Shown: positions 25,535-44,720 of the stretch, one piece after another | How the letters are laid out: the number at the start of each line of letters is the position of its first letter | Position numbering within the stretch: position 1 is the stretch's first letter | Assembly: GCA_041650495.1 (NCBI GenBank) | Contig: JBAZLB010000004.1 | Coordinates: 39,281 to 103,280, forward strand | Length of the DNA: 64,000 nucleotides | Direction: 5' to 3' | Source of the DNA: Candidatus Omnitrophota bacterium | Lineage (GTDB): Bacteria > Omnitrophota > Gorgyraeia > Gygaellales > Profunditerraquicolaceae | The notes under the pieces: generated by a model | Databases searched by the model: none | What the model was told of the DNA's origin: nothing | What the model saw: only the letters and a program-made list of their open reading frames with translations | Translations under genes and position numbers: made by a program

Positions 25535-26317
25535 TCAGATTTGTTTTAAAGCATCCTTCTCTTTTTTCGTGAATATGTAATGGCCCAGCCATATGCTCGC
25601 CAAGCTAAATCCAAACGCAAACAACCACATAACGCTGTCTCCTTTTGAGCCGTTATAAAGTATAGCGCGATAAAGAAGGGTATAACAGGTAGCTGGATTT
25701 GCAATCATAATAACCTGATGCCCCTTTGAGATACTTTCTAAAGGGTAAAATATGGGGGTCAACCAAAATAAAAACATTAAACCAATATTCAATAACTGCG
25801 CTAAATCCTTATAATAGAGATTACCGATGCTTACCATGAGCGATATGCCCAATGTAAAAACAAAGTGGAGCAGCAGGACGAGCGGCAATAATGCTAAGGA
25901 ATTTATGATTCTGGTATTACATAGAATAAAAACGGGCAAGAGACCTATAAAACCAACTAAAAAATTTACAAAGTTTGCTAAAACCACCGAGAGGGGTATT
26001 GCCTCATTCATAATAACGAACTGATTTAATACGGCACTATTATTCTTAATGGAAACTGCCGCTTCTGATAATGAGTTTGCAAAGAAAGACCAGGCCAAGA
26101 GAGCACTCAATATAAAAAGGGGGAAATTACTTATCCGGGTAGGCATTATTTGTGTGAAAACGAAGTTAATGGCACACATAATAAGCAGGGGATTAAGAAC
26201 TGCCCAAAAAATACCTATGGTAGAGCCAATATATTTATCACTTAAATTACGCTGCACCAGGCTCTTAATTACGTTTTTCTGTGCGCTTATCTTAACAAGT
26301 TTATCTCGTAGAGTCAT
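25535..26317 (-). CDS. ABC-2 type transporter permease (Wzm/TagG-like)
   Basis: 260 aa with 6 predicted TM helices in the ABC-2 arrangement. It lies directly upstream of the Wzt-like ATPase. Confidence 0.7.
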   Translation of the reverse strand: MTLRDKLVKISAQKNVIKSLVQRNLSDKYIGSTIGIFWAVLNPLLIMCAINFVFTQIMPTRISNFPLFILSALLAWSFFANSLSEAAVSIKNNSAVLNQFVIMNEAIPLSVVLANFVNFLVGFIGLLPVFILCNTRIINSLALLPLVLLLHFVFTLGISLMVSIGNLYYKDLAQLLNIGLMFLFWLTPIFYPLESISKGHQVIMIANPATCYTLLYRAILYNGSKGDSVMWLFAFGFSLASIWLGHYIFTKKEKDALKQI

Positions 26318-27015
26318 TGGTAAATATGAAAATACTCCTTTAAAATAGCGGATGCAATATTCTCCGCTAAAAGCCGATTTCCTTTTTTAGTACAATGCCC
26401 GAAGTTTCCTGCGAACATATCAACAAAATACTCTCTGTAGCTTTCTCTTTTTATTGCCTTCTGAAAGATCCCCTCATTATCTACAAAGATGATACCGTCT
26501 TGCTGTCCAGCAAAGATCCCCTTTAATGATGCCAAACTCCGAAGCGGATACTGGACACAAACCAATTGTATTTTATTTTTACTTAATATTCCCCTGATCT
26601 TATGGTAATTGCTATATGTCTTTGTCGTAATATTATGCCTAAAAAGTTTATCAACTTTTTTGGCATATTTACTCGCTACAGTATCCATCCCCATTTCATT
26701 GTATACTACAGCCAGCCCCCCATACGCATAATCTTGCAACGGATCTACCTTGGCCGCCTGGTTAAATGTCTCTATAGCCAAAGTAAACTTCCTTTCGGAA
26801 ACATAGTTTTCGCCTAATACAACATACGCCCAATAGTCTCTCGGATCCAGCTCTATGGCTTGTTTTAGCGACACCTCGGATGCCGGATATTTCCCCTGGT
26901 ATCTATAACACTGCCCCAACAAAAAATACGCTTTGCCGTTTTCCGGATTTAAGGCAACGGCTTTCTTCAATGCCTCTTCGGCGTCTGGATAATTATAATT
27001 ATAGATAAACGCCAT
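26314..27015 (-). CDS. C-terminal part of a split SGNH-TPR protein (TPR repeats plus SGNH block V)
   Basis: TPR-like repeats (AEEALKKAVALNPENGKAYFLLGQCY...). The C-terminus carries FVDMFAGNFGHCTKKGNRLLAENIA, which resembles SGNH block V (DxxH). The frame stays open for ~19 codons upstream of its ATG into the preceding ORF region. Confidence 0.5.
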   Translation of the reverse strand: MAFIYNYNYPDAEEALKKAVALNPENGKAYFLLGQCYRYQGKYPASEVSLKQAIELDPRDYWAYVVLGENYVSERKFTLAIETFNQAAKVDPLQDYAYGGLAVVYNEMGMDTVASKYAKKVDKLFRHNITTKTYSNYHKIRGILSKNKIQLVCVQYPLRSLASLKGIFAGQQDGIIFVDNEGIFQKAIKRESYREYFVDMFAGNFGHCTKKGNRLLAENIASAILKEYFHIYQ

Positions 27016-27068
27016 CGCTAAACCTATATAGGCCTCATCATTCTGAGGGTTTATCTCTATTTTCTTCT

Positions 27069-28121
27069 TTAATAGGCTTCTATTTCAGTAATCTTGCCTC
27101 TGTCCCTATAAATCCGTACCAGCTCAAGATATGGCCGAGGATCTTCCGGGCCACTCTCTATAGCTTTCTGCAGTGGCTCCTCCGCAGGAAAATATCTGCC
27201 TTGGTCGATATAGCATCTCCCCAATAGAAAATATGCCATATCATTTTTCGGATTCAACACAAGAGCCCTTTTAAGGGCATCCTCCGCTTCACGGTATCGA
27301 CCCTGGGAATGATAAAGTTGAGCTAACTCAATATATATTACATCGTAACCCGGCCTCAGTATTAGAGCTTTTTGCAGCAGCCTTTCATATTGGATATAGT
27401 CTCCTAGGTCGCGATATCCCCGCCCTAAACCAATATATTCTTCTGCCTGCTCTTTGTTGACATCTTGTGCGCCGCGCATAGAATCTCCATAACTAAAATA
27501 ATTGCCGCGCTTAATATAACTCTTACGTGGATCACTGAGGCCGGAAATGGGCGGAAACCCGTTTATCTCTTGCACGCTGGGGATCCGACAAGCCAGTTTT
27601 TTCGCCATAACATGCTCCCTCAACAGTATCAATAATTTATAGACCTTCAAAGACTGCAGATAAGAAATTATTTTATCTTCCGATGTTCGTTGGTTCACAA
27701 TATGCCTGGACCTATCGTTGATACCAAGCATCGCCACCACTATATCTGGTTTATACTTCGCAATGTTTTCTTCTAAATGCAAAGCTACATATGAAGTATC
27801 AATATCAGGAATGCCTTTATTAATTACACTAAATCTTAATCCTTTATTATTTTGATTTAATACAACTTCGAGTTGACTGGGGTAGCAACTTTCGCCGCCT
27901 ATCGCATACGCAGTCGTCGATTCCCCAACGCACATAATGCGATATGAGCTTTTCTGCTGCAGAGAAATCCTGTTTCTTCCTTCCTGTAAAGATGAAAATA
28001 TAAAACCTGCTAAACGCATCCCGGCCTCCAGAAAGACAACGCCAAGGCATATCCCTGCGATAATAAGTGCTGTCTTCTGGCAGAGAGATATAGCGGACGT
28101 ATGAGTATTATTACAGCGCAT
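27069..28121 (-). CDS. N-terminal part of a split SGNH-TPR protein (TM anchor, SGNH blocks I-III, TPR repeats)
   Basis: TM helix. Block I is IMCVGESTTAY, block III is VAMLGINDRS, followed by TPR repeats (YIGLGRGYRDLGDYIQYERLLQKALILRP...). It stops at 27069-27071, whereas the downstream TPR/SGNH-block-V ORF is open in another frame from about 27072. This suggests a frameshift (true pseudogene, sequencing error or recoding). Confidence 0.5.
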   Translation of the reverse strand: MRCNNTHTSAISLCQKTALIIAGICLGVVFLEAGMRLAGFIFSSLQEGRNRISLQQKSSYRIMCVGESTTAYAIGGESCYPSQLEVVLNQNNKGLRFSVINKGIPDIDTSYVALHLEENIAKYKPDIVVAMLGINDRSRHIVNQRTSEDKIISYLQSLKVYKLLILLREHVMAKKLACRIPSVQEINGFPPISGLSDPRKSYIKRGNYFSYGDSMRGAQDVNKEQAEEYIGLGRGYRDLGDYIQYERLLQKALILRPGYDVIYIELAQLYHSQGRYREAEDALKRALVLNPKNDMAYFLLGRCYIDQGRYFPAEEPLQKAIESGPEDPRPYLELVRIYRDRGKITEIEAY

Positions 28122-28277: not shown

Positions 28278-29100
28278 CTAGCAGGCAATAAAAGGTAAGT
28301 GGAGCAATATGCTGAATAATGATTCGTTCTTAATAATCGTTCGATAGCGGTTTTTTATTAAATCAGCGTACAATTCATTGCTAAGATATCTGCGTGCATA
28401 CGTTTTATTGATGCCCGACGCCGTCCGGACGCTGGCACCACGCATATGGTACGCCACAGCATCAGGTATATAATAAGCCTTCCAGCCCATATTGTAAGCC
28501 CGCCAAGCGATATCTAAATCCTAATAAAAGAATCGAAAGTCACTATCAAAATATTCAACCCCCATTTTGAGGTCTTCCAGCATCGCTCTACGATAAAAAG
28601 CAACTGCTCCGCTTACTCCGAATATATACCCTGCGCGATTGTAAAGTTGCCCTTTTTTAGTGCCGTAGCCCCTTTCCCGGACTGAACGATACAGATTCAA
28701 CGATAATCCGGTACTATCTAACGTTATCCCGTCAAAACGAAAGACTTTGCCATCCACCATGCCAATCTTTGAGCTAACAGTAAAACCAATAATTGCTTTT
28801 TCAATAAATTTTTCATCTAAAATGACATCGTCATTAAGACAAAGAATAAAGTCCCCGTTACTCTGGCTGATTCCACAATTTAACCCTACGCAGTAGGATT
28901 TTTTCTCGGCATCCGTATACACAGTAACTTCCGGATAATGACGGTGTATGCTTTGGCTGACCTCGGGGTTACATGCATTATCAACAACGATGATTTCGTG
29001 AAAAGAGTGTGTCTGGACACATAATGAGTCTCAACATGATTCCCAGCAACGAAATGCTCCGGAGGTAACAACAATACTTACTTTCCTGTTTGAGCCTTCC
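28278..29100 (-). pseudogene. Disrupted GT2-family glycosyltransferase (three or more frame fragments)
   Basis: Three consecutive minus-strand ORF fragments in different frames. The 5-prime piece starts MTQEGSNRKVSIVVTS..., the middle piece has LNCGISQSNGDFILCLNDDVILD (DxD region), and the 3-prime piece has GWKAYYIPDAVAYHMRGAS (GT2 C-terminal motif). Confidence 0.6.
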
Positions 29101-30949: not shown

Positions 30950-31096
30950 TTACTGGTTTGTTTCGGAAGGTTTATTTTGCTCTTTCTTATTCTTCTTATC
31001 CTGCATATTACCTTTTACAATTACATACCCAAAAAAGAATACTATAACACCTAAAAACACATACACCGGCCAATCCTGCCATAAGTTTCCAGTCAT
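30950..31096 (-). CDS. Small membrane protein, 48 aa (MTGNLWQDWPVYVFLGVIVFFFGYVIVKGNMQDKKNKKEQNKPSETNQ)
   Basis: Not in the ORF track (<60 aa). Strong RBS (GAGGAGG 8 nt upstream of ATG). One TM helix plus a Lys-rich tail. It sits between rnfA and the permease and ends 12 nt before the permease start. Confidence 0.4.
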   Translation of the reverse strand: MTGNLWQDWPVYVFLGVIVFFFGYVIVKGNMQDKKNKKEQNKPSETNQ

Positions 31097-31131
31097 ACTT
31101 AAAACCTCCTCATTAGTCTAGTCCGCTTGAA

Positions 31132-31740
31132 CTAAAATTTGAAACCATTAAACCCCATAAATGCAAGGCTCATTATAGAAGCAATGATAAATGCCAAAGG
31201 TAAAATCTTGAATGCCTTGGGCGGATTACAAAGCTCAAGCCGCTCCCTAATACCTGACATCAAAAGCATGGCCAGGGTATAGCCTATCCCAACGCATAAT
31301 CCCTGGAATACCGAAAATATGAAGCCCCCGGATACTGTCTTACTGTTTACAAAGAACATATCGACATTGAGAACCGCTACGCCTAATACGGCGCAGTTCG
31401 TAGTAATCAAAACAAGATAAATACCGAAGGCGCGATAAAGAGCGGGGCTCGTCTTTCTTATTATCATTTCCACCAGTTGCACAAAAGCAGCAATGATTAG
31501 GATAAAGACTAAGGTACGCAAATATGTCAATTGAAACGGGATCAAAAGAAACTTGTAGACTAACCACGTTATAGCAGAAGATATTGTGGTTACAAACGTA
31601 ACTGCCATACTCATCGCAAACGCCTGCCTTGTGTCTTTAGATATGGCGACAAAAGGACACAGTCCCAAGAAACGCGACAGAATAACATTGTTAATAAAAA
31701 CTGCTGAAATAAAAATAGTTAAAAGCTGCGCAGAATTCAT
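31132..31740 (-). CDS. rnfA: Rnf/Nqr family membrane subunit, RnfA/RsxA-like
   Basis: 202 aa. FLGLCPFVAISKDT...TNCAVLGVAVLN...SLAFMGFNG closely follows the RnfA/NqrE consensus (FLGLCPF, TNCAVLG, LAFMGF). No other rnf genes are in the window. Confidence 0.8.
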   Translation of the reverse strand: MNSAQLLTIFISAVFINNVILSRFLGLCPFVAISKDTRQAFAMSMAVTFVTTISSAITWLVYKFLLIPFQLTYLRTLVFILIIAAFVQLVEMIIRKTSPALYRAFGIYLVLITTNCAVLGVAVLNVDMFFVNSKTVSGGFIFSVFQGLCVGIGYTLAMLLMSGIRERLELCNPPKAFKILPLAFIIASIMSLAFMGFNGFKF

Positions 31741-31744
31741 TTTC

Positions 31745-31873
31745 TTACTTTTTCATGCCATTTAATCTTGCTTTTTCATTTCTTGCCTTTATATTGTTCC
31801 TAGTAGTAAACAGCAGTGAGAATAAAATCGCAAGAACAATAACCCCTAACTGTTCTAATATGCTCGTTGACAC
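31745..31873 (-). CDS. Small membrane protein, 42 aa, GTG start (VSTSILEQLGVIVLAILFSLLFTTRNNIKARNEKARLNGMKK)
   Basis: AGGAGGGG RBS 5 nt upstream of GTG. One TM helix. The stop lies 4 nt before the rnfA ATG. It is missed by the ATG-only ORF track. The overlapping plus-strand ORF 31755..32048 is rejected. Confidence 0.35.
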   Translation of the reverse strand: MSTSILEQLGVIVLAILFSLLFTTRNNIKARNEKARLNGMKK

Positions 31874-32147
31874 AGGCCCCTCCTATTTTCTAAGTCGATT
31901 TAATGTCTTGGAATCTTTCCCGCCCAGGCCTTTTCTAAATATCCTGCTGAAACAAAATATCAGCATACTCAAAATAAATGTCCACGAGATTATCATGAAT
32001 ATCCATCCGCTTAATTTCAATCCACACCCCCTTCATCGGATATTATGAGTAATCGCAAAAGCCACACACAATATCCCAGTTGAAATACAGACTTCCATTA
32101 TAATAAATATAACCGCCTTCCTTTATCCATGCCTCTCCTTTATTAAT

Positions 32148-32228
32148 AAAAAACCGCCACCTGACTTTAAAAGCCAGATGGCGGCCCGACCATCCAAGTC
32201 CTCCGGAAATATACCCTTCCGGACCCTT
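32148..32228 (-). terminator. Conserved two-hairpin element, copy A; distal hairpin plus U6 is an intrinsic terminator for treT
   Basis: Minus-strand RNA: hairpin UCCGGAA-GGGUAUA-UUCCGGA, then conserved core GAUGGUCGGGCCGCCAUCU, then hairpin CCGCCAUCUG/CAGGUGGCGG (10 bp with 1 G-U) followed by UUUUUUAUU. Confidence 0.7.
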
Positions 32229-32313: not shown

Positions 32314-33528
32314 TTAACAGAGATGAACGATATCTTCAGGATGATATAACGAAAGAAACAATAACATATAATCTCTTAAATGACGCGTAATCAGAAAATT
32401 ATTTTTTATATGCTCCCGACCGTTCTCTCCCAGTTTCTTGGCGTATTCGGGACTACTTAACAGCTGTTTTATGGCAAAACTGGCCCCCTCAACAGAATGG
32501 CACAATAATCCTGAATATTTATGTTTTATTTGCAAAGGGATGCCTCCCACATTTGAAGCAATAACTGGTTTTGCTTTCCATAAGGCCTCTGCTACGGTTA
32601 AACCAAAGCCCTCCCGAAGAGACTTTTGGATAATTACATCCGAAGACCTTTGCAACGCATTAACCTCTATATCATTATGAGGTAATAGTAAAATATGGAT
32701 ACCGGGGTCGTTCTTAGCTTTTTCTCTGACTTCACCGAGGACCTTGAATCCTTCCGGGTCATCCCCTGCGGTGCCGCCAGCCAACACCAGCTGGCAATCA
32801 GTATATTTTTTTACCTGCAGGTATGCTTCAATTACGCCTATCGGATCCTTTAGACGGTCAAAGCGGGATACTTGGGTGATGATCGGCTTATCTTTTTTGA
32901 TATTATATTTTTTCAAGACCGCATCTATTGTTTCCTGAGGCAATTCTTTGTTTTTATCGCTTAAGGGGTCAATGGAAGGAGAAATTAGAAATTGCCTAAT
33001 GGGTAATTTCCGGGAAAAGGCAGGGGCAGAAAACACTGCGGAATCGTATTGAGTGATAAAATCCATAAGAAATCCCCAGACCCTTTCATCAGGATTAGAT
33101 ACGTCAATATGGCAGCGCCAAAGCCATTTGTTAGCGGCTTTCTTTTTTATCAGGGCTATTGGCTGCGGGTCATGGACAAAAACTATATCTCCATAGGTAT
33201 CAACATTATCGATATTCTCCCGGCTTGTCTGCATAAATATCTCAAAATCTCTTTGAGTTATTTCTTCGGCCTTGCCGTGTAAGGCGTTATGAAACTTCTT
33301 TGTCACATCAAAGAACTGCTCTCCGCCTTTTATGACGTCCCATTTCGTATCTACGCCTAATTCCACGAGCAGCGGGACCATACGGTTCAATATCTCGGCA
33401 ACTCCACCACCTACAGGAGTAGAATTTATATGCTGGATAACCTTGCCTTTTAACCGCTCGCCAAGCAATCTTAAATCGTCAATAATAGACTGCCCTACCA
33501 AAGGAATATATTTTTCTATCTCTGTCAT
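32314..33528 (-). CDS. treT: Trehalose synthase (nucleotide-sugar:glucose trehalose glycosyltransferring synthase, GT4)
   Basis: 404 aa. HINSTPVGGGVAEILNRMVPLLVELGVDTKWDVIKGGEQFFDVTKKFHNALHG matches the conserved TreT N-terminal block. The C-terminus has the GT4 E-x7-E region. Confidence 0.7.
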   Translation of the reverse strand: MTEIEKYIPLVGQSIIDDLRLLGERLKGKVIQHINSTPVGGGVAEILNRMVPLLVELGVDTKWDVIKGGEQFFDVTKKFHNALHGKAEEITQRDFEIFMQTSRENIDNVDTYGDIVFVHDPQPIALIKKKAANKWLWRCHIDVSNPDERVWGFLMDFITQYDSAVFSAPAFSRKLPIRQFLISPSIDPLSDKNKELPQETIDAVLKKYNIKKDKPIITQVSRFDRLKDPIGVIEAYLQVKKYTDCQLVLAGGTAGDDPEGFKVLGEVREKAKNDPGIHILLLPHNDIEVNALQRSSDVIIQKSLREGFGLTVAEALWKAKPVIASNVGGIPLQIKHKYSGLLCHSVEGASFAIKQLLSSPEYAKKLGENGREHIKNNFLITRHLRDYMLLFLSLYHPEDIVHLC

Positions 33529-33529
33529 T

Positions 33530-34201
33530 TTATTGCGAAATTCTTCTTTCGATTATTTGGATAATCGTTTTCCTTAAATCCTCTAAAGTGCGCGTATAGG
33601 GGTCAAAGCCGGCAATAGCATCTCCCAATTCTTTATCGCCTAAAGAATTCTCTATCCAAAACGAGAAGTCATTGGTTGGTTTCTCAAGCCTAAGCCGCGC
33701 CTCAAAAATATGAAAATAAATCGAATCTATGGTGATTTTCTTCAGGATATCCGCAAATTCCTTTAAATCATAGGCAGTATAATTTTTCGGCAGAATAAAA
33801 CTGACTGATTTGATAAAATGGAATTCTTCTCCGGGACGCGCGAATTTTAATTTGGCAAATGAGCTGCCGCTTAAATATTCCTCAATAGTTTGCGCGATCT
33901 TGTCCCGCAGGCTGCGTATAGTTGAATATTGCATAGTGTCAATGCTGGCTAATTTTTCTCCGAGCTCATCTTCTCCCAGGATATCCGTTACCCAATATGC
34001 AAAGTCATTCGGGGGTTCGGGAGAAAGATATTGGTGTTGTTGCAAGAATCTATGGGTGTGGTGATAGATGCATGAACCAGGCACTTCCTTAATAAGAGCC
34101 AACAATTGGCCCAAGGTGGCGGCTCGTAATCCAGTCAGCTCTGACAAGTGCAATCTCGTGCAAAACCTAAATGGCTCTTTGGTTCTTATTAATTCTGTCA
34201 T
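33530..34201 (-). CDS. Hypothetical protein with internal duplication, co-clustered with trehalose genes
   Basis: 223 aa. Two ~90-aa repeats: NDFAYWVTDILGEDELGEKLASIDTMQYSTIRSLRDKIAQTIEE and NDFSFWIENSLGDKELGDAIAGFDPYTRTLEDLRKTIIQIIE. Its stop lies 2 nt from the treT start. Confidence 0.5.
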   Translation of the reverse strand: MTELIRTKEPFRFCTRLHLSELTGLRAATLGQLLALIKEVPGSCIYHHTHRFLQQHQYLSPEPPNDFAYWVTDILGEDELGEKLASIDTMQYSTIRSLRDKIAQTIEEYLSGSSFAKLKFARPGEEFHFIKSVSFILPKNYTAYDLKEFADILKKITIDSIYFHIFEARLRLEKPTNDFSFWIENSLGDKELGDAIAGFDPYTRTLEDLRKTIIQIIERRISQ

Positions 34202-34203
34202 AA

Positions 34204-35073
34204 TTAGTTATGTTTTAAGTCCAATATTAAACGTAAAAACCGAGTTACCTCTTCCGGGCCCTTCAGGTAATAGCCCGCCTTGGAGCTACCCGGCTCTCCC
34301 ACAAATACCGTCAGCCCTTTTCTTTTTAATACCTTAAAAGCGTCTTCATCGGTTACATCGTCTCCTATATACACAGGAAAAACCATTTTTTTCCCCAAGG
34401 CGGATTGCTGCCTTGTCAAAAGCCATAAGACAACCTTACCCTTATCCCATTCAACAGGGGGTTTTATCTCATAAACCTTTTTACCGGGATTAACCTTTAT
34501 CTTATCGCGCACTATATAAGGGGTAGTGACTTCGGCAATGATCTTCTCAAACGCAGGCAGATCTTTTTTGGCGACTAAACGATAGTGGATACTTAAGGTT
34601 AATCCTTTGTCCTCAACCAACGCGCCTTTGATGCCTGAAATCTGCTTTTGTATTTCCGCGGCAATATTCCGCATAATTGATTTTAACCGCGGGGAAACCT
34701 GGCTTTCAAATTTCATCTTTGGACCTTCGATTTCCAGGCCGTGGTTACCCGCATAAATAACGCCTTCTATCCCCATAACATTCTTTATGTCCTCCAAAGA
34801 CCTGCCGCTGATAATGCCTAACTTGCAATAATCACTTCTGGACAGCTTCTGCAATAATTCTTTGGTTTCTTTAGAGATAACTGCCTTCTTAGGGTCTTCT
34901 ACAATCGGGGTTAATGTCCCGTCGTAATCCAACAAAAGTAAAATAAAATTACTACATAATTGTTCATTTATTTTACTAAATTTAGTAAACAAATACTCCA
35001 CGCTTAAACCCCGCTCCTGCCTAACTAAACCTTCTTCAATGCTGTTAATTCCGTGATTATGTTGCCCGCCCAA
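34204..35073 (-). CDS. otsB: Trehalose-6-phosphate phosphatase (HAD family)
   Basis: LLLDYDGTLTPIV (HAD motif I DxDGT), K...GDDVTDEDAF (motif III). 289 aa. Confidence 0.8.
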   Translation of the reverse strand: MGGQHNHGINSIEEGLVRQERGLSVEYLFTKFSKINEQLCSNFILLLLDYDGTLTPIVEDPKKAVISKETKELLQKLSRSDYCKLGIISGRSLEDIKNVMGIEGVIYAGNHGLEIEGPKMKFESQVSPRLKSIMRNIAAEIQKQISGIKGALVEDKGLTLSIHYRLVAKKDLPAFEKIIAEVTTPYIVRDKIKVNPGKKVYEIKPPVEWDKGKVVLWLLTRQQSALGKKMVFPVYIGDDVTDEDAFKVLKRKGLTVFVGEPGSSKAGYYLKGPEEVTRFLRLILDLKHN

Positions 35074-37262
35074 CGATAAATATTATTTTCGGCAATGGTC
35101 TTCCTCATATTCTCCATACGTTTTTTCTTTTCATCCGGGGGCATTTCAACGGATACATTTATAGCATCGGCAAATTCTTCGATTGCATAAGGATTGAACT
35201 GGACCGCATCAGTCAATTCCCGGGCGGCGCCTGTAAACTGGCTTAAAATAAGCACGCCGGATAGATCTTTTTTTGTAGCCACGTATTCTTTAGCAACAAG
35301 ATTCATCCCGTCATCCAGAGAGCTAACCAGACAAAAATCAGCCATTTTGTAAAAAGGGATAATCTCATCGGCAGAAAAATGCTTCTTAAGATAAATGATC
35401 GGTTTCCAGCTCCCGTCCATATGTTTCCAGTTTTTCTTTTCAATCAGCTCATCGATCTCTGCCATAAGGTCGTGGTAACGCTTAATATGGACACGGCTGG
35501 GCGCGGCCATCTGGATAAAAACTACTTTTTTCTTATAGTGGGGGTATTTTTCAAAAAATCTGTCAATGGCAAGCACCCGTTCAATAATGCCTTTTGTATA
35601 ATCAATCCTATCCACCCCAACGCCGATAATCTTGTCTTCTAATTCAAATTCGGTTTTAATCTTCGCTATCTGCTTGTCCAAATCCGGCATCCCAGCTTCC
35701 TTATTCATATATCCGTTAACGCTGATAGGGAATGCCCTGATAAAAGTTTCCTTATTTAACCTGACAACGCTGAATTTTTCCGTGTCTACCCTTGACTCAA
35801 GGAGCCTGTTTGCCGTATCCAAGAAGTTATTGCAGTGGTTCTGCACATGAAATCCCACCAAGTCACAACCAAGCATTCCGTCTAAGATTTCTTTGCGGTA
35901 AGGGCATATGGAAAATGACTCTGGGGTCGGCCAGGGGATATGCCAGAATAAAGCGATAGTGGCATCAGGTCTTTTTTCTTTAATTATCCTGGCTAAGAGC
36001 GTAAAGTGGTAATCCTGAATAAACACAAAAGGGTCCTTAACAGGCAATTCCTCTAACAGGCTATCAGCAAACTTTTGGTTTACTTTTTTGTAGACATTCC
36101 AATCCGCTTCTCTAAAAATAGGACGCGTATGCGTATTGTGACAAAGCGGCCACAGCCCTTCATTGGAAAAACCGTAATAGTAACCATCCTCCTCTTCCTT
36201 ATTCAGCCATACTCTCTTTAAAATATAGCGGTTATCTTCTGGCGGGACACCAAGCTTATTTTTTGAATTTACAAATTTTCTGTCTGCATTACCGGCGCCA
36301 TGGGCTATCCATGTCCCTCCGCAGGCGCATAGAATCGGATGTATAGCAGTGACAACACCGCTTGCCGGTCTTATACACTTAGTTATCCCCGTGACCTCGT
36401 CTATAACATGCATATACGGTTCCCGGTTCGAAACTACAAATAATGCGTTCTCGCCCAACTTTGCATTAACGAGGTCTCTTAATTTTACTTCTGTCCATGT
36501 CTCTTCTTTTTGCAGCCGCGCAGACGCTTCATCAGAAATTGTCCTGCGGGCGACCCTAAGGCTCAATGCCACCTGTTCTACTTCGCTAGCAAGTTTACCA
36601 AGTTCTCCCCTTTCTTTGATCGGATGGAAATCATCGGTTTCTCCTCTTTGAAAATGTTCAAACCAGGCTGTCAAACGCTGCAGGGGAATAGCAAATATCT
36701 GCTGATGCAGAAAAATTGCTATAATAAAGATTATTATCACCAGGACTATGAGCGTTGCACTGATTCTCTTCCATAGCTCTGTCAATCGGGTAAATACGTA
36801 AGAAGTATCATATACAACTTCGACTAATCCCAAAACCTGCCCTTCGTCGTCTGTTATGGGGAGGATATAGCTATAAACGGTATAACCTTTAAATTTCTCC
36901 AGTTCACCTCTGGGGGTCTTGTTTAACAACAAATCTTTCAGATAAGGCTTCTCTTTTTCTTTCCAGTCATTGAAACGTTTAGTAATGGCCATGATGTTTC
37001 CGTCTTTATCGTATAAAACACATCCCTGCAGCCTTTCCCGTGTCTCGAATTTTTCGGCAAGGTAATTGGCATTTCTCATGTCTTTTGCAAAGAAGATACC
37101 CTTCGCCGATAACTCCATGCTTTCTGCGATGTGTTTGGATTTACGCTTCAAATCATCGATGAGCCTCTCTTCTTCAAAGCGGACTTGGAAGTAGCCAAAA
37201 AGGGTAAAGGCCGCGGCAACAACGATGAGGATAGGTAAAATAAATAACAAAATGCGCCTCAT
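35025..37262 (-). CDS. otsA: Membrane sensor-HAMP domain fused to trehalose-6-phosphate synthase (GT20)
   Basis: 745 aa. TM1 (res 5-25), ~140-aa extracytoplasmic region, TM2 (LIVLVIIIFIIAIFL), HAMP-like segment (IPLQRLTAWFEHFQRGETDDF...LASEVEQVALSL), then the OtsA core (NEGLWPLCHNTHTRP, ...ILSQFTGAA...). Confidence 0.75.
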   Translation of the reverse strand: MRRILLFILPILIVVAAAFTLFGYFQVRFEEERLIDDLKRKSKHIAESMELSAKGIFFAKDMRNANYLAEKFETRERLQGCVLYDKDGNIMAITKRFNDWKEKEKPYLKDLLLNKTPRGELEKFKGYTVYSYILPITDDEGQVLGLVEVVYDTSYVFTRLTELWKRISATLIVLVIIIFIIAIFLHQQIFAIPLQRLTAWFEHFQRGETDDFHPIKERGELGKLASEVEQVALSLRVARRTISDEASARLQKEETWTEVKLRDLVNAKLGENALFVVSNREPYMHVIDEVTGITKCIRPASGVVTAIHPILCACGGTWIAHGAGNADRKFVNSKNKLGVPPEDNRYILKRVWLNKEEEDGYYYGFSNEGLWPLCHNTHTRPIFREADWNVYKKVNQKFADSLLEELPVKDPFVFIQDYHFTLLARIIKEKRPDATIALFWHIPWPTPESFSICPYRKEILDGMLGCDLVGFHVQNHCNNFLDTANRLLESRVDTEKFSVVRLNKETFIRAFPISVNGYMNKEAGMPDLDKQIAKIKTEFELEDKIIGVGVDRIDYTKGIIERVLAIDRFFEKYPHYKKKVVFIQMAAPSRVHIKRYHDLMAEIDELIEKKNWKHMDGSWKPIIYLKKHFSADEIIPFYKMADFCLVSSLDDGMNLVAKEYVATKKDLSGVLILSQFTGAARELTDAVQFNPYAIEEFADAINVSVEMPPDEKKKRMENMRKTIAENNIYRWAGNIITELTALKKV

Positions 37263-38317
37263 TTTTCACCTCTTTCCTGGCTGTAATTCATAGCCCTGAT
37301 AGGATAGGGGATAACAATCCCTTCCTTTTTATAGCGCTCCTGAAGCCTCTTGATAAATTCATGCTTAACCAGGTACTGATCCACAAATTCTTTAGCCCTC
37401 AATATTACGGTAAGATTGATACCAGAATCTCCGAAACTGCCATACCTAATAAAAGGCTCGCATTCTGGCACTCCCCCCGGCACATTGTCCATTACTTCTT
37501 TCGCGACTTCGCAGGTAACTTTTTCCACGCGCTTCAGATCGCTCTTATAATGGACGCTTAAATTAACCAGCACTGCCATTGCCTTATCCGGCAAGTAGTA
37601 GTTAGTAACGGTTGCCTTGGTTAACTTCTCATTAGGCACCAAGATAACATTATTAGGCAGCATCTTTATCTTGGTAGTGCGCCAAGTGATATCCGTAATG
37701 TATCCTTCCTCTCCTGAGTCTAGTCTTACATAATCGCCGATTCTAACTTGTTTGGATATAATAATATGAAATCCCGAGAAAAGATTGGAAAGCGTGTTTT
37801 GTAAAGCTAAGGCAACCGCAATGCCGCCTACTCCTAAAGTAGCCAGTATCGGTGTAATAGAAATTCCTAGGCTGTGCAGGATAATTAAGATCCCGATAAT
37901 GAATACAAGTATCCGGCTAATGTTTTGCGTAAGGGAAGTAACTGGTAAAGCAGCCTCGATTTTACTGGAATATACACTAACTAATTTAGCCGAGATATTA
38001 GCCAAGACAAAGGTAATAGAAAGAACGCCCAGGACAAGCAAGAGTTTATCTATTACATGTACTAGATTTTCCGGCAACCTTGAAAACTCGAGAGCAAAAT
38101 AAATACCCAGCATTAAAAACCAGACTATGAACGGCCCTTTTATTGAATCTATAATAACATCGTCAACTTTGGTCTTGGTATGTTTTGACCAGCGGCTAAG
38201 GCGGGCAAAAACAATCTTTCTTACAATAAACCCGCAGAGCAAGGTTATAAGACATACCCCCAGCGGCACTAAGGTTTTAAATAAATTCTCGATAGAAAGG
38301 ATTGAAATAATATTCAC
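37259..38317 (-). CDS. Small-conductance mechanosensitive channel (MscS family)
   Basis: 352 aa. Three N-terminal TM helices plus the conserved MscS pore/beta region (GIAVALALQNTLSNLFSGFHIIISKQVRIGDYV). Confidence 0.75.
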   Translation of the reverse strand: MNIISILSIENLFKTLVPLGVCLITLLCGFIVRKIVFARLSRWSKHTKTKVDDVIIDSIKGPFIVWFLMLGIYFALEFSRLPENLVHVIDKLLLVLGVLSITFVLANISAKLVSVYSSKIEAALPVTSLTQNISRILVFIIGILIILHSLGISITPILATLGVGGIAVALALQNTLSNLFSGFHIIISKQVRIGDYVRLDSGEEGYITDITWRTTKIKMLPNNVILVPNEKLTKATVTNYYLPDKAMAVLVNLSVHYKSDLKRVEKVTCEVAKEVMDNVPGGVPECEPFIRYGSFGDSGINLTVILRAKEFVDQYLVKHEFIKRLQERYKKEGIVIPYPIRAMNYSQERGEK

Positions 38318-38338: not shown

Positions 38339-38419
38339 AAAAACCACCACCTGCATTCATATGCAAGATGGCGGCCCGACCATCTTAAAAATAACCTCTG
38401 GAGGCAGCTATCTCCAGAC
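38339..38419 (-). terminator. Conserved two-hairpin element, copy B; terminator downstream of the tRNA-Val/tRNA-Asp unit
   Basis: Same architecture as copy A, with an identical 19-nt core (gatggcggcccgaccatc on the plus strand). The flanking hairpins are conserved in structure with compensatory changes (UCUGGAG/CUCCAGA; CCGCCAUCUUGC/GCAGGUGGUGG), followed by UUUUUGAUUU on the minus strand. Confidence 0.65.
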
Positions 38420-38702
38420 CACTTATTATCTTAATCGTTGCAGATATCATTATACATCAAACAGGCACTTTTACAATCTCCTTGTTATCTTAGATTACAA
38501 GGCGTTTGTTTGTTCCTCATCAACCCTGTTATTCTTTGATATCAAAGGGGGTAAGAACTTATTTTCCGATTATTTTCTATAAAATCTTACGGCCAAATTG
38601 TGGCCGGCCGGGGACCAAAAATATGCTAAGATGCCGCCTATCCCCATGATTATCTACAAACAGGAAATCCCCGAAATTGCTTACGGGGATTAGTGTTATA
38701 TA

Positions 38703-38778
38703 CGGGCCCGACGAGATTTGAACTCGCGGTCTTCAGATCGACAATCTGACGTGCTAAACCAGACTGCACCACGGGCCC
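38703..38778 (-). tRNA. tRNA-Asp (anticodon GTC)
   Basis: Manual cloverleaf: GGGCCCG acceptor stem, D-arm GCAGTCTGGTTTAGC, anticodon stem-loop TCAGA-TTGTCGA-TCTGA (GUC), T-arm GCGAGTTCAAATCTCGT, discriminator G. The 3-prime CCA is not encoded. Confidence 0.85.
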
Positions 38779-38862: not shown

Positions 38863-38937
38863 TGGGCGGTACAGGACTTGAACCTGTAAACCTCCTGAAT
38901 GTAAGTCAGGCGCGCTAACCAATTGCGCCAACCGCCC
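38863..38937 (-). tRNA. tRNA-Val (anticodon TAC)
   Basis: Manual cloverleaf: GGGCGGT acceptor, D-arm GCGCAATTGGTTAGCGC, anticodon stem-loop CCTGA-CTTACAT-TCAGG (UAC), T-arm CAGGTTCAAGTCCTG, discriminator A. CCA is not encoded. Confidence 0.85.
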
Positions 38938-38980: not shown

Positions 38981-39601
38981 CTAATGGCTGCGGACAATCT
39001 CCTTGACCCGCATCAGGCGCACAAGATTGCCGCGTTCAAATTCATTCAGTTTCTGGGTAATATAGCGGATGGTATCCTGTATGGAGGGAATAAGTATATA
39101 CTCCAGGGCATTCACCCGGCGGCGGGTGCGTTCAATTTCATAAGAGAGAATATCCAGGGTCTTTACAAGCTGCGCCAGTTTTAAGAGTGATTGTATATAA
39201 TCCCTGGCCTGAGCTACTGCCATATCCAGCTGGGCTGAGGCCTTGAAGAAATCATAGCCCTTTTCTATTTTTATCTTCTGTATGTCAAATACAGGGACCT
39301 TGACATTCATAACCCTTCTGGTATCTACTTTAATGTCGATATCGGAATTGATTTTTGCCAAAGAACCCACAAAATCTACGGATGAACTGCTAACACGAAA
39401 ATAAAGCAGGTCCCGGAAAATCCCCCTGGTGCGTGACATAAAATCCTCTTTGGAATAATGGATATCTTTAACCAGAGACAGGAACCGGCGCATCATCTCT
39501 TCAAGTTTATCCTGCAGGAGTTTATGCCCCCTTTGCGCAAGCAGAAGCCTGCGCCTGAGCCGGAGCAATTCCATCCTGTTGGGATTGACACGCAGTATCA
39601 T
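38981..39601 (-). CDS. atpD: A/V-type ATP synthase subunit D
   Basis: 206 aa, coiled-coil rich, [29 protein letters not shown] is typical of V-type D. It is the last gene of the operon and overlaps atpB by 4 nt. Confidence 0.8.
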
Positions 39602-40974
39602 CGTTTTCCTTCATAATATTTATCCAGGTATTCTTCCCTGATACGCTTCAATTCCTGCCGGGGAATTAAACGTAAAAGCCCCCATCCCGTATCCAGGGTC
39701 TGAATGATAGAGCGCTCCTCGGATTCTTCCTGCCGGACGAATTTATCCTCAAAACCGTCGGCGAATTTTAAATAAAGTTTATCCAAATCCGAGAGGGCTG
39801 CCTCACCCAGGATCACCGCCAGTTCCCTGGATTCTTTGCCTTTAGCATAGCAGGCAAAGAGCTGGTTTAAAACATCGGAGTGGTCCTGGCGGGTCTTGTC
39901 TTTACCAATGCCTTTGTCTTTGAGCCGGGAGAGGCTGGGCAAAACATCTACCGGCGGATATACCCCCTTGCGGTGCAATTCGCGGGAGAGCATAATCTGG
40001 CCTTCGGTAATGTATCCGGTCAAATCCGGTATGGGGTGGGTTTTATCATCCTCAGGCATTGTTAATACCGGCAGGAGGGTAATAGAGCCGCTCTTACCTT
40101 TAATGCGGCCCGCCCTTTCATAAAGGGTAGATAAGTCCGTATAAAGATACCCTGGATAACCCCTGCGGCCGGGAATTTCCTTGCGGGCAGCGGAAACCTC
40201 GCGCAAGGATTCACAATAAAATGCCATATCAATAAGTATGACCAAGACATGCATATCCAAATCAAAAGCCAGGTATTCGGCACAGGTAAGCGCAAGGCGG
40301 GGGGTAGAGATTCTCTCTATCGCAGGGTCATTGGCTAAATTTATGAATAAAACGCTTCTCTCAATGGCGCCGGTATTGCGGAAATCACGCATAAAGAAAT
40401 CCGCCTCTTCAAAGGTAATCCCCATAGCCCCGAAGACAACCGCGAAGCCTTCATCTTTACCCAAAACCTTAGCTTGACGGGCAATCTGGGCGGTGAGTTG
40501 CGCATGCGGCAGGCCCGAGGCAGAAAATATAGGAAGTTTCTGCCCGCGGACCAAAGGGTTCATCCCGTCAATGGTAGAGATGCCGGTTTGAATAAACTCC
40601 GAAGGATATGCCCGGGCGCTGGGATTAATGGGGCTGCCGTTGATATCTATCCGTTTATCGGCGATAACCTGCGCCCCGCCGTCGCGGGGACGGCCTGCGC
40701 CGTTAAAGATACGCCCGATTAAATCCCGTGATACGGATAATTCCTGCGTGCGGCCTAAGAAACGCACCTTGGAATCTGCTATATCCATACCGATAGTCCC
40801 CTCAAACATCTGCACCAGGGCCTTATCTTCATAAACCTCAAGGACCTTCCCCCGGCGGGAATGGCCGTCTGAGAATTCAACTTCCACAAGCTCCGCGTAT
40901 TTAATATTCTCGGTTTTCTCCACTATCACCAGGGGCCCGGAAACCGAAGTAACAGTATGGTATTCTCTAATCAT
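39598..40974 (-). CDS. atpB: A/V-type ATP synthase subunit B (regulatory)
   Basis: 458 aa. The P-loop-like region is degenerate, as in B subunits. The [10 protein letters not shown]...[22 protein letters not shown] block is conserved. Confidence 0.9.
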
Positions 40975-42709
40975 ATGCGCTCCTTAACTCTTCTTCTAAC
41001 CTATCGAATTCTCCTGAGGCTTCCTCAGGGATATATTTGACCCGGCTTATCCTTTCCCGCAACGGCATCTTTACGATATCGTCAAACTCCAAGCCCTCTT
41101 TAAGCCTTATTTTAGCGAAGGAATGAAACCCCATGATTATCTTTAACATACGGTATTGCTTGGCCAGAGAGGTATAGGTATCCACTTCATGAAAGGCATT
41201 CTGATGCAGGAAATCCTCACGGATAGATTTGGCAGTCTCTAAAACCAGGCGGTCGTCAAACGAAAGAGACTCCACCCCCACCAGGCGGGCAATTTCCAAT
41301 AACGAAGACTCCTCCTCAAGCAGACGCATTGCCTCCTGCTTTAAAGAAATGAATTCTTCGGCAATATTCTTATTTAAGAACTCTTCCAGGCTGGTGTGGT
41401 AAAGGGAATAGCTCAACAACCAGTTGATGGCCGGGAAATGCCGGGCATTGGCTAATTTATCATCCAGCCCCCAAAAGACCTTGGCTACGCGCAACGTCGC
41501 CTGCACTACCGGATCAGATAAGTCCCCTCCCGGAGGAGAAACCGCCCCCATAATGCTTAATGCGCCCTGACGGTTGTCGCTGCCTAAACAGGTAACTTTT
41601 CCGGAGCGTTCGTAAAATTCCGCCAACCGTGAAGATAAATAGGCAGGGTAGCCTTCCTCCCCCGGCATCTCTTCGAGCCTGCCGGAAATCTCACGCAATG
41701 CCTCTGCCCAACGGGAGGTGGAATCCGCCATCAAGGCAACGGAATAGCCCATATCGCGGAAATACTCAGCAATAGTAATGCCCGTATAGATGGATGCCTC
41801 CCGGGCTGCCACCGGCATATTGGAAGTATTGGCAATGATAACCGTGCGCTCAAGCAGGGGACGGCCGGTGCGCGGGTCCTTCAATTGCGGAAAACTTAAA
41901 AGCAGGTCAGCGCATTCATTGCCTCTTTCTCCGCACGCCACATAAACAATGACCTGCGCGTCAGACCACTTAGCCACCTCATGCATAGTAACCGTCTTGC
42001 CTGCGCCAAAAGGCCCGGGGATACAGGCTGTGCCCCCCTTGGCAATAGGAAAGAAGGTATCAATGACCCTCTGCCCCGTGGTCAACGGCTCATCAGGGGC
42101 GAATTTTTCCTGGATAGGCCTGGCCTTTCTTACTGACCAGCGCTGCGACATAAGAATATCCTTGAATCCCTGGCTTGTCTTGACCCTGGCCACTGCCTCC
42201 CGTATAGTAAAATCACCTGCGCGTATATCCACTACCTCGCCGGTTATCCCGGGGGGGACCATAACCTTGTGTTCAATCAAAGCTGTCTCCTCAACCACTC
42301 CCAGTATATCTCCTGAGACAACTTGCTGACCCATAGAGGCCTTGGGCTTAAAATGCCACTTCTTCAGGGCGTCTAATCCCGCAATATCAATCCCGCGCGG
42401 GATAAAATCACCGCAAGACTGCATAATAACATTCAGGGGGCGTTGTATGCCGTCATAAATAGAATTAATCAAGCCGGGGCCCAATTCCACGCTTAAAGGT
42501 TCGTTAGTCAAATAAACCGGCTCCCCTGGGCCTATGCCAGAGGTCTCTTCATATACCTGTATGTAAGCCAGGTCGTTTTTAAGTTCCACGATTTCACCGA
42601 TTAATTTCTTGGCGGAAACCCGCACCATATCATACATCTTAGCGCCCTTACAGCCGCAGGCGACTACCAAAGGCCCGGATACCTTGATGATCTTAGCTTG
42701 TTTTGTCAT
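40967..42709 (-). CDS. atpA: A/V-type ATP synthase subunit A (catalytic)
   Basis: 580 aa. Walker [31 protein letters not shown], and the non-homologous insert region typical of A subunits. Confidence 0.9.
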
Positions 42710-43038
42710 TATAATGCTCCTGTGGCTCTTATTTGAATGCCCTTAACCATCTTATCCAAAAAATCCGTCCCTCCGTCTTTAGAAAAAGGAATAAAAATCG
42801 GAAGGGGCATTTTTTTATAACTGTTTATCCTCTCTTCCTGCGCCTGGTATATATTATCCTGCACCAGGCATACCCCGGTCTGGTTATTGACTATATCTTC
42901 CAGCGCCTTCTCAAACTGTGGTATTTCCTTGGCGGTATAGACCTTAAAACCCAGGGCAGAAAAACCCAAGACTATATCCTCATCCCCGATAATCGCCAAG
43001 GCATTGCCTACAACAAATCCTTCAGGCATAGACGGCAT
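42709..43038 (-). CDS. atpF: A/V-type ATP synthase subunit F
   Basis: ~109 aa. The start is set at the ATG preceded by AAGGAG (7-nt spacer), internal to the longer track ORF 42709..43065. It lies between atpC and atpA. Confidence 0.7.
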   Translation of the reverse strand: MPSMPEGFVVGNALAIIGDEDIVLGFSALGFKVYTAKEIPQFEKALEDIVNNQTGVCLVQDNIYQAQEERINSYKKMPLPIFIPFSKDGGTDFLDKMVKGIQIRATGAL

Positions 43039-43822
43039 TGATCCGCTCCTTAAGCAGTCCCACATCCAGGTTATTAAGTTTGGCCAATATAGTCATGCGG
43101 ATTAAATTTATCTCATTGGCCCTGGCAAAATAATAAGCCAGCACCGGCTCCGGGCCAAAAGTAAAATACTTAGCGGGCTTAAGGGCCCCTATCAATAAAC
43201 TGCTCATTGCTTTCTCTAAGGCAATGAAGGATTTTTTCTCTACCGCCTGGTTTATACCCCCCCTTAAAACCGAGGCGTAATCCAGGGTCTCATTGCGTTT
43301 ATGCACATATTCCAGCCTATGCATAAAAACCGCTAAGTCCTGGCTGTAAAGCCTAATAAAATCCCCTTTGGGGATGAACCCTGCGCATTGGATAACTTTA
43401 TAAAGTTCATCCAATGGTTCTTTTAAAACATAAAGGCGCAGGAAACTCTTAATATTATGCATGTCTATTACCTGGCTTAAATAGTCTTCCAGAAAGTCAC
43501 TGCGGTAATGCTCTAAGGCGCGTTTTAAACAGGGCAGGTCATTTAATTCCAAAAGCCCCAATAGCCGCTTATCCAAAAGCAGGCTGCCGATGAGGTCCTT
43601 TAAACCGGCTGATTCCTGAGTTAATATCTCTTCCAGGCGGCGGCTGTCCCGGACATGTAAAAGCTCATCGCTATAAAGGCCTGACTCGGCAAAAAGCCTT
43701 AATGCCTCATCCAAAGCGGATTCCACTGCCTCAATAAACACCTCCTGCTTAATCAAAAACCTCTCCAGCGCCCTGATCTTTGCCACGGCAAAGGTATAAT
43801 TTAAAGGCGATATCCCGCTCAT
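43022..43822 (-). CDS. atpC: A/V-type ATP synthase subunit C (d-type central stalk)
   Basis: 266 aa, all-helical, placed between E and F as in the canonical atpHIKECFABD order. Confidence 0.7.
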   Translation of the reverse strand: MSGISPLNYTFAVAKIRALERFLIKQEVFIEAVESALDEALRLFAESGLYSDELLHVRDSRRLEEILTQESAGLKDLIGSLLLDKRLLGLLELNDLPCLKRALEHYRSDFLEDYLSQVIDMHNIKSFLRLYVLKEPLDELYKVIQCAGFIPKGDFIRLYSQDLAVFMHRLEYVHKRNETLDYASVLRGGINQAVEKKSFIALEKAMSSLLIGALKPAKYFTFGPEPVLAYYFARANEINLIRMTILAKLNNLDVGLLKERINAVYA

Positions 43823-44229
43823 TTAAAGAGTATCCCGGCTATTTCGTTTTCGTATTGAAGCCTCAAGCCCGCAAGGTAAAAATCAACCCCCTCAGAAGCC
43901 TCCTGGACTTTGTCCAATGACACTATCTCTTTCTTAATCTTGTTTCTGGCCAGCTGTGGCTTTGCCTTGTCAAAAATAGAGCCGATTATTCCCTGTTTTG
44001 CCTCTAGTATTTTTTTCTTCTGTTTAAGGCGCGCATTGACGACCAACCTCTTCCTTTGGCGTTCTAGCAAGGAATTTTCTTTCTTTAGACTGTCACGGTA
44101 ATAACCTTCTGCCTCAATCCCGGCCTGCTGGATTATCTCCTGGGCCTTAAGCCTCGCCTCTTTTAGTATGCCTTCTTTCCGGGCATCCGCTTCATTCAGG
44201 ATATGCGCTAAAATAGATTCTAGTGACAT
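43819..44229 (-). CDS. atpE: A/V-type ATP synthase subunit E (peripheral stalk)
   Basis: 136 aa, charged coiled-coil N-terminus (EADARKEGILKEARLKAQEII). It is short for subunit E but positionally consistent. Confidence 0.6.
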   Translation of the reverse strand: MSLESILAHILNEADARKEGILKEARLKAQEIIQQAGIEAEGYYRDSLKKENSLLERQRKRLVVNARLKQKKKILEAKQGIIGSIFDKAKPQLARNKIKKEIVSLDKVQEASEGVDFYLAGLRLQYENEIAGILFK

Positions 44230-44233
44230 ATGA

Positions 44234-44707: not shown

Positions 44708-44720
44708 ATCACCCTCCTTC

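Follow-up and report, generated by a model that had tools for sequence, protein, structure and literature searches.

What becomes of a respiratory subunit gene that stands apart from the rest of its complex? The question is raised by a stretch of 64,000 nucleotides from a Candidatus Omnitrophota bacterium (assembly GCA_041650495.1, contig JBAZLB010000004.1, positions 39,281 to 103,280; hereafter the window), in which a gene for an RnfA-type protein, here named rnfA2, lies among short open reading frames (ORFs) for membrane microproteins and upstream of a permease gene, with the remaining rnf genes nowhere in sight. We distinguish its product, RnfA2, from RnfA1, the subunit encoded within canonical rnf operons. 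With somewhat better than even confidence, we read rnfA2 as the gene for an alternative form of the RnfA subunit of the Na+ pump Rnf, induced by a Li+/Na+ riboswitch as part of a salt-stress regulon; the arrangement suggests that, when salt rises, the cell swaps or supplements one part of the pump. A riboswitch-controlled or stand-alone rnfA paralog was not found described in the searchable literature.

Judged by its sequence, the gene encodes a bona fide RnfA, in agreement with the original prediction. The protein matches Pfam PF02508 (3e-54; 184 bits against a cut-off of 23.8) and passes the NCBIfam model TIGR01943 (237.8 bits against 229.3), while scoring far under the cut-off of the nqrE model (149.9 against 247.6 bits). 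Its alignment covers the full length of three solved RnfA chains, those of A. woodii (9eri_A, E=4.5e-57), C. tetanomorphum and A. vinelandii. RnfA and RnfE were recently proposed to form the Na+ channel of Rnf, with transmembrane helix 4 (TM4) as the moving part; the TM4 segment holds the Na+ binding site, a gate leucine and a conformational switch, and RnfA gives two of the four cysteines of the membrane [2Fe-2S] cluster and requires an oppositely oriented RnfE (Kumar et al., bioRxiv 10.1101/2024.06.21.599731). The functional residues described for A. woodii RnfA are the cluster cysteines, Y105, L108, T110, T111, N112 and K32/R154; the contacts to the RnfB clusters are K32, R154 and E158, with K32/R154 named for cluster B8 (Kumar et al., bioRxiv 10.1101/2024.06.21.599731). 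In RnfA2, the counterparts Y108, L111, T113, T114 and N115 are all present, K35 and R165 (the K32/R154 equivalents) are invariant, and C28 (LGLCPF) and C116 (TTNCAVLG) are invariant across all RnfA2 and RnfA1 sequences. Since the Na+-site, gate and RnfB-contact residues are kept and a TM4 proline is replaced, RnfA2 appears to retain everything needed for a place in the Rnf complex and to differ in the moving part of the channel.

The absence of other rnf genes from the window, also noted earlier, was borne out by tblastn with RnfC, RnfG, RnfD, RnfE and RnfB queries from a related operon, which returned only the expected cross-match of RnfE to RnfA; the 10 kb beyond the window start likewise contain no rnf genes, only radical-SAM and glycosyltransferase genes. 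In most Omnitrophota, the RnfA about 77% identical to that of the window is encoded inside a canonical rnfC-G-D-E-A-B operon. An isolated rnfA like that of the window occurs in a subset of loci, in two arrangements. In type I (RnfA 82–90% identical; L007, L010, L089–L095, L159 and L167), TreT is followed by s45-s42-rnfA-s48-permease, where s45, s42 and s48 are microprotein genes. In type II (about 76% identical; L012, L014, L097, L100 and L104), the order is rnfA-s45-s48-s42 without a permease, placed after TreT in three of the five loci and elsewhere in L012 and L104. The RnfA2 sequences from 12 distinct loci formed a clade in neighbor-joining trees with 83% bootstrap support, within which type I and type II were recovered at 97% and 98%, respectively.

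Three metagenome-assembled genomes (MAGs) in GTDB carry rnfA2 together with a complete rnfCGDEAB operon that has its own rnfA: JAHIKK01 (L009/L020), JBAZGN01 (L014/L038) and JAQVOZ01 (L012/L028). Because the canonical operon retains its rnfA in these three MAGs, rnfA2 is better described as a paralog than as the product of an odd gene order. The suggestion of a non-canonical order with the remaining genes elsewhere thus captured part of the picture: the operon of the relatives, rnfC-G-D-E-(A)-B, does lie on another contig or 3.5 kb downstream, but what stands in the window is a distinct and old paralog. The two rnfA copies within one MAG are only 72–78% identical and their synonymous sites are saturated, pointing to an old paralogy and not to a recent duplication. 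Both copies are under equally strong purifying selection, with ratios of nonsynonymous to synonymous change (pN/pS or dN/dS) of 0.07–0.17 for rnfA2 against 0.08–0.10 for operonic rnfA, and rnfA2 is intact, at 202 amino acids, in every complete copy.

The strongest evidence that RnfA2 serves as the RnfA subunit of an Rnf complex comes from the type I locus L010 (MAG JAZDEW01). Downstream of its module lie MFS-rnfC-rnfG-rnfD-rnfE, a 170-nt gap and rnfB-purN, with all five rnf ORFs intact; 3.5 kb separate the rnfA2 stop from the rnfC start, and rnfA2 itself is about 7 kb upstream of the gap. This rnfE–rnfB spacer (17498–17667 of L010) still keeps about 19 codons of the rnfA C-terminus, at 63% identity, by which we recognize it as the deletion scar of an operonic rnfA. 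The only rnfA found on the contig is rnfA2, on which this relative relies alone. As intact rnfCGDE and rnfB, an rnfA scar and a single remaining rnfA2 are found together here, L010 provides indirect support for a function of RnfA2 within Rnf, from which we infer its assembly with RnfE.

The organizing feature of the transcription unit is an element that the original prediction had not seen, a riboswitch of the nhaA-I (Li+/Na+) class. Aptamers were identified with the Rfam covariance model RF03057, and the two of the window are both on the correct (minus) strand, in the leaders upstream of s45 and of MscS. In the first of these elements (32151–32226), the loop and 3' arm of stem P2 of the aptamer double as the 5' arm of an intrinsic-terminator-like stem; an ON switch is predicted, because a P2 stabilized by the ligand should block the overlapping terminator. 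The same overlap was seen in all relatives inspected, comprising nine other aptamer leaders from seven related loci. Across 14 aligned aptamers, stem P1 shows compensatory, double-sided changes at five of its seven pairs and none that break pairing; P2 is invariant and therefore uninformative for covariation. Orthologous aptamers lie directly upstream of the module in seven loci, immediately before s32 (a further microprotein gene) or s45 in L007, L092, L093, L159 and L179 and immediately before rnfA2 in L012 and L104. In L014 and L097, the aptamer precedes an OtsA operon that runs straight into rnfA2, and in L010 an aptamer (44–100) is found about 1.7 kb upstream of OtsA, by way of whose operon that module is probably controlled. 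In related Omnitrophota, rnfA2 nearly always lies behind an nhaA-I riboswitch; none was detected in the five canonical rnf operons scanned. Orthologs of the second aptamer precede OtsA in L007, L093, L014, L097 and L179, and, since a second nhaA-I aptamer lies directly upstream of the MscS/trehalose genes, trehalose synthesis and a mechanosensitive channel appear to be placed under the same cation switch.

The nhaA-I RNAs sense Li+, and rare variants of the terminator type (Na+-II) sense Na+; the genes listed behind them are nhaA, otsA (16), nhaD (6), 'citrate transporter' (5) and mscS (3), and rnf is absent from both the paper and its gene table (White et al. 2022, PMC9646797). The Omnitrophota elements resemble this regulon (PMC9646797) in an aptamer above threshold, a terminator platform like that of Na+-II, and the shared otsA, mscS and 'citrate transporter' genes. 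They depart from it in the unlisted rnf gene, in their occurrence in Omnitrophota when the terminator type was reported only from Deltaproteobacteria, and in the nucleotide that we map to position 54, which is U and not C. In that mapping, which is our own, a U stands 5' of CGGGCC in all Omnitrophota copies, as in the Li+-I RNA of R. eutropha or in the C54U mutant; D. propionicus Na+-II has C. The C54U substitution broadens the response, which then extends to Li+, Na+ and NH4+ (White et al. 2022, PMC9646797).

A comparison of about 174 RnfA sequences delimits what is peculiar to RnfA2. At the first cluster cysteine and in TM4, operonic RnfA1 of core Omnitrophota (73 sequences) reads C-S-F and YLPLITVNC, V. 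cholerae NqrE reads C-T-F and FLPLITVNC, and RnfA of A. woodii, C. tetanomorphum, A. vinelandii and other phyla reads C-P-F and YLPLITTNC; RnfA2 has C-P-F and YL[V/A]LITTNC, and a sister operonic group (L003-type) has C-P-F and YLTLITTNC. The TM4 proline P110, which precedes the gate leucine, is thus valine in the RnfA2 of the window; it is kept in the solved RnfA and NqrE chains and in nearly all other RnfA, being replaced by valine or alanine in RnfA2, by threonine in the L003-type group, and otherwise missing only in the operonic L132 and L134 (CPATTNC). Q39 is a shared derived residue of RnfA2. S29 accompanies V114 in 73 sequences and P29 accompanies T114 in nearly all others, a near-perfect co-variation beside the cluster cysteines that sets RnfA1 (S29/V114) against RnfA2 (P29/T114); it seems that a hydroxyl residue is supplied from one or the other position next to the [2Fe-2S] cluster. 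Positions 29, 110 and 114 border the Na+ site and the cysteines of the cluster, and it is a speculative extension that the RnfA2 isoform may alter Na+ or Li+ handling. The S/V and P/T pairs need not signify a change of ion, because NqrE, a subunit of the Na+ pump Nqr, has the T/V flavor, and their use as a marker of H+ against Na+ was dropped for this reason. The NqrE-like C-S-F/ITVNC signature was observed in operonic RnfA of core Omnitrophota (L013–L042 and others) and in one Spirochaete sequence (L085).

The small ORFs beside rnfA2 are, on comparative evidence, real genes. The two flanking ORFs singled out by the original prediction, s42 and s48, are more than chance reading frames: each represents a family conserved in at least 10 related loci, is preceded by a Shine-Dalgarno site and has a pN well under its pS. 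The prediction was accurate for the 42-residue GTG-initiated ORF, which has a strong Shine-Dalgarno site and a stop codon 4 nt before the rnfA ATG; for the 48-residue Lys-tailed ORF, the position and ribosome-binding site hold, but the distance to the permease ATG (30938) is 11 nt rather than 12. Its picture of rnfA bracketed by two small ORFs was incomplete, as it missed a third (s45), a frameshifted fourth (s32), and the riboswitch with its terminator. Lengths and ribosome-binding sites are conserved in the s45, s42 and s48 families. Homologs of s45 share 54–91% identity, with pN of about 0.11 against pS of about 0.85, and a database search recovered 34 small clusters, none functionally annotated. 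Homologs of s42 occur in both type I and type II loci (dN/dS 0.15–0.43), and those of s48 (dN/dS 0.12–0.5) conserve the N-terminus MTGNLxQDWPVY. In leaders of type II and of the trehalose type, s32 is the ORF that comes first behind the riboswitch; in relatives it is intact as MDKGMKVIFIIMGVCILTGVLCVIFAFTHNIR, a protein of 32 amino acids with two cysteines in its transmembrane helix, encoded between the riboswitch terminator and s45. It is disrupted in the window by a 1-nt deletion that the ENA and Logan assemblies share.

Searches of the microproteins against Pfam and NCBIfam at E values up to 10 gave sub-threshold noise only; the best matches (SecE 0.013, BCCT 0.009 and OAD_gamma 0.14) are chance-like and far under cut-off, and the small-subunit (MetS-type) model of the NSS transporters was not among them. 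A role of s45 as a dedicated NSS small subunit was discarded, as no profile model backs the idea and its partners vary. That the small ORFs might be leftovers of the C-terminal end of RnfE or the N-terminal end of RnfB was considered and rejected: in tblastn, related RnfE and RnfB sequences matched nothing there, and the ORFs constitute independent conserved families that are also present in the other gene order. Since the microproteins occur without rnfA2 and beside varied partners, they belong to the cation-stress unit and not to rnfA2 specifically; our guess is that they may serve Na+-handling complexes of the membrane as small subunits with an accessory or regulatory function. Several s45-like genes were observed in further settings. 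One follows an SNF/NSS transporter in L003 (4184–4288; likewise in L005, L006 and L029), another precedes an MFS_2/GPH transporter in L089 (370–471), and in L178 (7001–7138; a MAG labeled Nitrospirae) s45 comes after TreT and ahead of a gene of the Na+/Ca2+-exchanger family (Na_Ca_ex).

The permease that ends the unit is less closely bound to rnfA2. Only the broad Pfam model CitMHS was passed (1.7e-64, 218.5 bits), the NCBIfam cut-offs for NhaD_1 (30.1/80), ArsB (63.4/457) and DASS (85.3/198.6) all being missed, and its nearest solved relatives are ArsB and VcINDY. A permease is absent from all five type II loci and fragmented in L007, and in L179 it is present without rnfA2; because of these three situations a tie between permease and rnfA2 is unsupported, and the permease is dispensable, neither necessary nor sufficient for the presence of rnfA2. 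The alternative raised at the outset, a stand-alone RnfA paralog brought to the neighboring transporter together with small subunits, is therefore upheld for the paralogy and the linkage to microproteins and finds no support for the transporter.

In the model that we favor, RnfA pairs with RnfE, the two making up the [2Fe-2S] site in the membrane and the Na+ channel of Rnf, the ferredoxin:NAD+ pump, and a single transcription unit would run from the nhaA-I riboswitch through (s32), s45, s42, rnfA2 and s48 to the permease. At low cytoplasmic Li+/Na+, the terminator overlapping P2 would halt transcription; cation binding would stabilize P2 and allow the operon to be read through, and the sister riboswitch would exert the same control over the adjacent MscS/trehalose-synthesis operon. 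RnfA2 would then join RnfE, RnfB, RnfC, RnfD and RnfG encoded elsewhere, replacing or supplementing the operon-encoded RnfA1 and altering the properties of the ion path. A fuller version, in which the riboswitch brings in an RnfA with an altered TM4 together with the microproteins as extra Rnf subunits or assembly factors, shifting Na+ affinity, Li+ tolerance or leak under salt stress, is offered tentatively, as a possibility that we would not expect to hold in full.

Several points weigh against our interpretation. Induction, assembly and transport are predictions drawn from sequence, and what P110V and P29/T114 do to function is a matter of conjecture. The ligand may be Li+ and/or Na+, because the discriminator nucleotide resembles that of Li+-I or C54U and the terminator platform that of Na+-II, which point in different directions. 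That both rnfA copies belong to one genome rests on the binning of the MAGs. The loci L179 and L180 contain the riboswitch, s45, an s42-like ORF, a short s48, s48 and the permease without rnfA2, which is therefore not an obligatory part of the unit, and L010 has no riboswitch directly upstream of its module. Finally, neither the 64-kb window nor the 10 kb beyond its start yielded this genome's own rnfC, rnfD, rnfG, rnfE or rnfB, and as these were not located, rnfA2 could be either the spare or the sole rnfA here.

This last point feeds the main rival explanation, namely that rnfA2 is a relocated sole copy, the operon having lost its rnfA as in L010, so that the genes are split between two sites and no isoforms are switched. 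L010 is in exactly such a state, complete with a deletion scar; the window and the 10 kb beyond its start contain no second rnfA, and DAONDX01, JAZDEW01 and CAYHRM01 give one RnfA match each among the matches listed, though these counts are minimum values (at least one) from incomplete MAGs and thus weak evidence. Against it, JAHIKK01, at 90% the closest GTDB relative by RnfA2 identity among the matches listed, possesses a full operon that includes an rnfA of its own, and a sole, essential rnfA placed after a terminator that depends on cations would deprive Rnf of its channel whenever Na+/Li+ is low. The direct riboswitch, moreover, is missing from L010 and present in the window. We regard a relocated sole copy as unlikely, if the most serious of the competing accounts.

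It is less probable still that RnfA2 has left Rnf altogether and works with the microproteins, the permease or both as a Na+/Li+ transport or sensing device. Such a device would explain the linkage of rnfA2 to s45, s42 and s48 in both gene orders and the riboswitch shared with a permease of an nhaA-I-associated family (White et al. 2022, PMC9646797), but it is at odds with the absence of the permease from type II loci and its decay in L007 and with the persistence of microproteins and permease without rnfA2 in L179. An RnfA alone would bring two of four cluster cysteines and need an oppositely oriented RnfE; a manual count of Lys and Arg (about 9 in loops 1-2, 3-4 and 5-6 against about 4 on the opposite side, at positions common to RnfA1) indicates an ordinary fixed topology, and on this count a dual-topology RnfA2 homodimer in place of RnfE was rejected. 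The invariant RnfB-contact residues and the dependence of the L010 operon on rnfA2 likewise argue for a role within Rnf. The lack of rnf partners nearby, the frameshift in s32 and the glycosyltransferase fragments just downstream might instead be taken to mark a decaying remnant of a broken rnf operon, with the small ORFs as chance or relic frames. We consider this highly improbable and already contradicted, given an intact rnfA2 under purifying selection and small ORFs that are conserved, furnished with Shine-Dalgarno sites, constrained in their protein sequence, and unrelated by tblastn to the ends of RnfE and RnfB.

Set beside known systems, an alternative RnfA subunit of the kind favored here shares with the Rnf RnfA of A. 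woodii (9eri_A) and C. tetanomorphum (7zc6_A) the cysteines, the TTNC Na+-site motif, the gate leucine and the RnfB-contact Lys/Arg. It differs from them in having a gene that stands by itself, apart from rnfBCDGE and downstream of a riboswitch, in the change of the TM4 proline of YLPLITTNC to valine, and in being a second copy in most genomes where this is checkable. NqrE (V. cholerae 7xk3_E) belongs to the same fold family, and RnfA1 of core Omnitrophota has an NqrE flavor in the hydroxyl after the first cysteine and in ITVNC; RnfA2, in contrast, has the Rnf-type CPF/TTNC and the low nqrE score given above. Stress-regulated alternative subunits exist in other machines, among them the Zur-regulated zinc-free paralogs of ribosomal proteins and the alternative isoforms of terminal-oxidase subunits. 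The logic is the same, a spare subunit outside the main operon that is switched by a specific ion signal, the exchange in Rnf being only proposed; the cases differ in the machine, in the signal, which here is a monovalent-cation riboswitch, and in the subunit, here half of an ion channel.

A natural RnfA isoform that is separately regulated and differs in TM4 offers a ready comparison for the mechanism of the Na+ channel, with P107V and the P26S/T111V pair as the differences in A. woodii numbering. It would also add a subunit of a respiratory complex to a Li+/Na+ riboswitch regulon so far made up of transporters and occasional trehalose genes (PMC9646797), and would show an uncultured phylum bringing the extrusion of Na+, the synthesis of compatible solutes and a mechanosensitive channel together in a single salt response controlled by RNA. 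The three or four new conserved families of membrane microproteins would come with a defined inducing signal, which is rare for microproteins. If the fuller version of the model is true, Rnf would be the first respiratory ion pump in which a riboswitch drives the exchange of a subunit, and RnfA1 and RnfA2 would be a natural mutant pair for dissecting the Na+ path of Rnf and Nqr.

Features of the window around rnfA2, in the order of transcription on the minus strand (gathering score of RF03057, 37 bits)
Feature	Coordinates	Strand	Remarks
Two tRNA genes	38703–38778, 38863–38937		Upstream of the riboswitch-controlled operons
nhaA-I aptamer 2 (RF03057)	38366..38421	−	43.8 bits against gathering 37; upstream of the MscS/trehalose operon
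Riboswitch-controlled osmostress operon	32314..38317	−	MscS, OtsA, OtsB, DUF5752, TreT
MscS	37259–38317	−	
Sensor-fused OtsA	35025–37262	−	
OtsB	34204–35073	−	
DUF5752	33530–34201	−	
TreT	32314–33528	−	
nhaA-I aptamer 1 (RF03057, Li+/Na+ class)	32176..32226	−	46.7 bits against gathering 37, E=4e-7; TreT–s45 intergenic region
Intrinsic-terminator-like stem	32151..32187	−	17 bp followed by a U-run; predicted expression platform
s32, frameshifted remnant of a fourth microprotein gene	32034..32130	−	1-nt deletion relative to L007 and L159
s45, single-pass membrane microprotein, 45 amino acids	31883..32020	−	TTG start; GGGGG Shine-Dalgarno
s42, single-pass membrane microprotein, 42 amino acids	31745..31873	−	GTG start; AGGAGG Shine-Dalgarno
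rnfA2, paralogous RnfA subunit, 202 amino acids	31132..31740	−	Signature CPF ... YLVLITTNC
s48, single-pass membrane microprotein, 48 amino acids, Lys-rich tail	30950..31096	−	GAGGAGG Shine-Dalgarno
IT-superfamily permease (CitMHS/ArsB/NhaD-like), 423 amino acids	29667..30938	−	Last gene of the riboswitch-controlled unit

The ORFs lie at the coordinates originally given, and the rnfA/microprotein/permease genes and the trehalose genes are all on the minus strand. Within the osmostress operon, OtsA has an N-terminal extension of about 270 amino acids with weak similarity to sensor-kinase and dCache extracellular and transmembrane regions, which suggests that this trehalose-6-phosphate synthase is anchored in the membrane and senses a signal. 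Immediately upstream of the two operons under riboswitch control is a V/A-type ATPase operon (38981–46742, minus strand; subunits I, K, E, C, F, A, B and D), and the equivalent position in L179 is occupied by an F-type ATPase. Downstream of the permease, two short ORFs of 133 and 70 amino acids (28278–28922, minus strand) resemble pieces of one family-2 glycosyltransferase and are probably a pseudogene. A TPR/GDSL-lipase-like gene (26313–28121, minus strand) is split into two ORFs in the window and forms a single ORF of 568 amino acids in the ENA counterpart of the contig (ERZ27247363 k141_822032; 172 kb, the NCBI copy having 191.7 kb); the split is due to the sole 1-nt indel across the 20.6 kb overlap with the ENA copy, which may be a discrepancy of assembly or sequence or else a genuine frameshift. 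The remainder of this side (1–26300 and the 10 kb beyond) carries about a dozen radical-SAM/SPASM genes, B12-binding radical-SAM genes, TPR proteins, an ABC exporter and glycosyltransferases, and looks like a cluster for peptide or polysaccharide modification.

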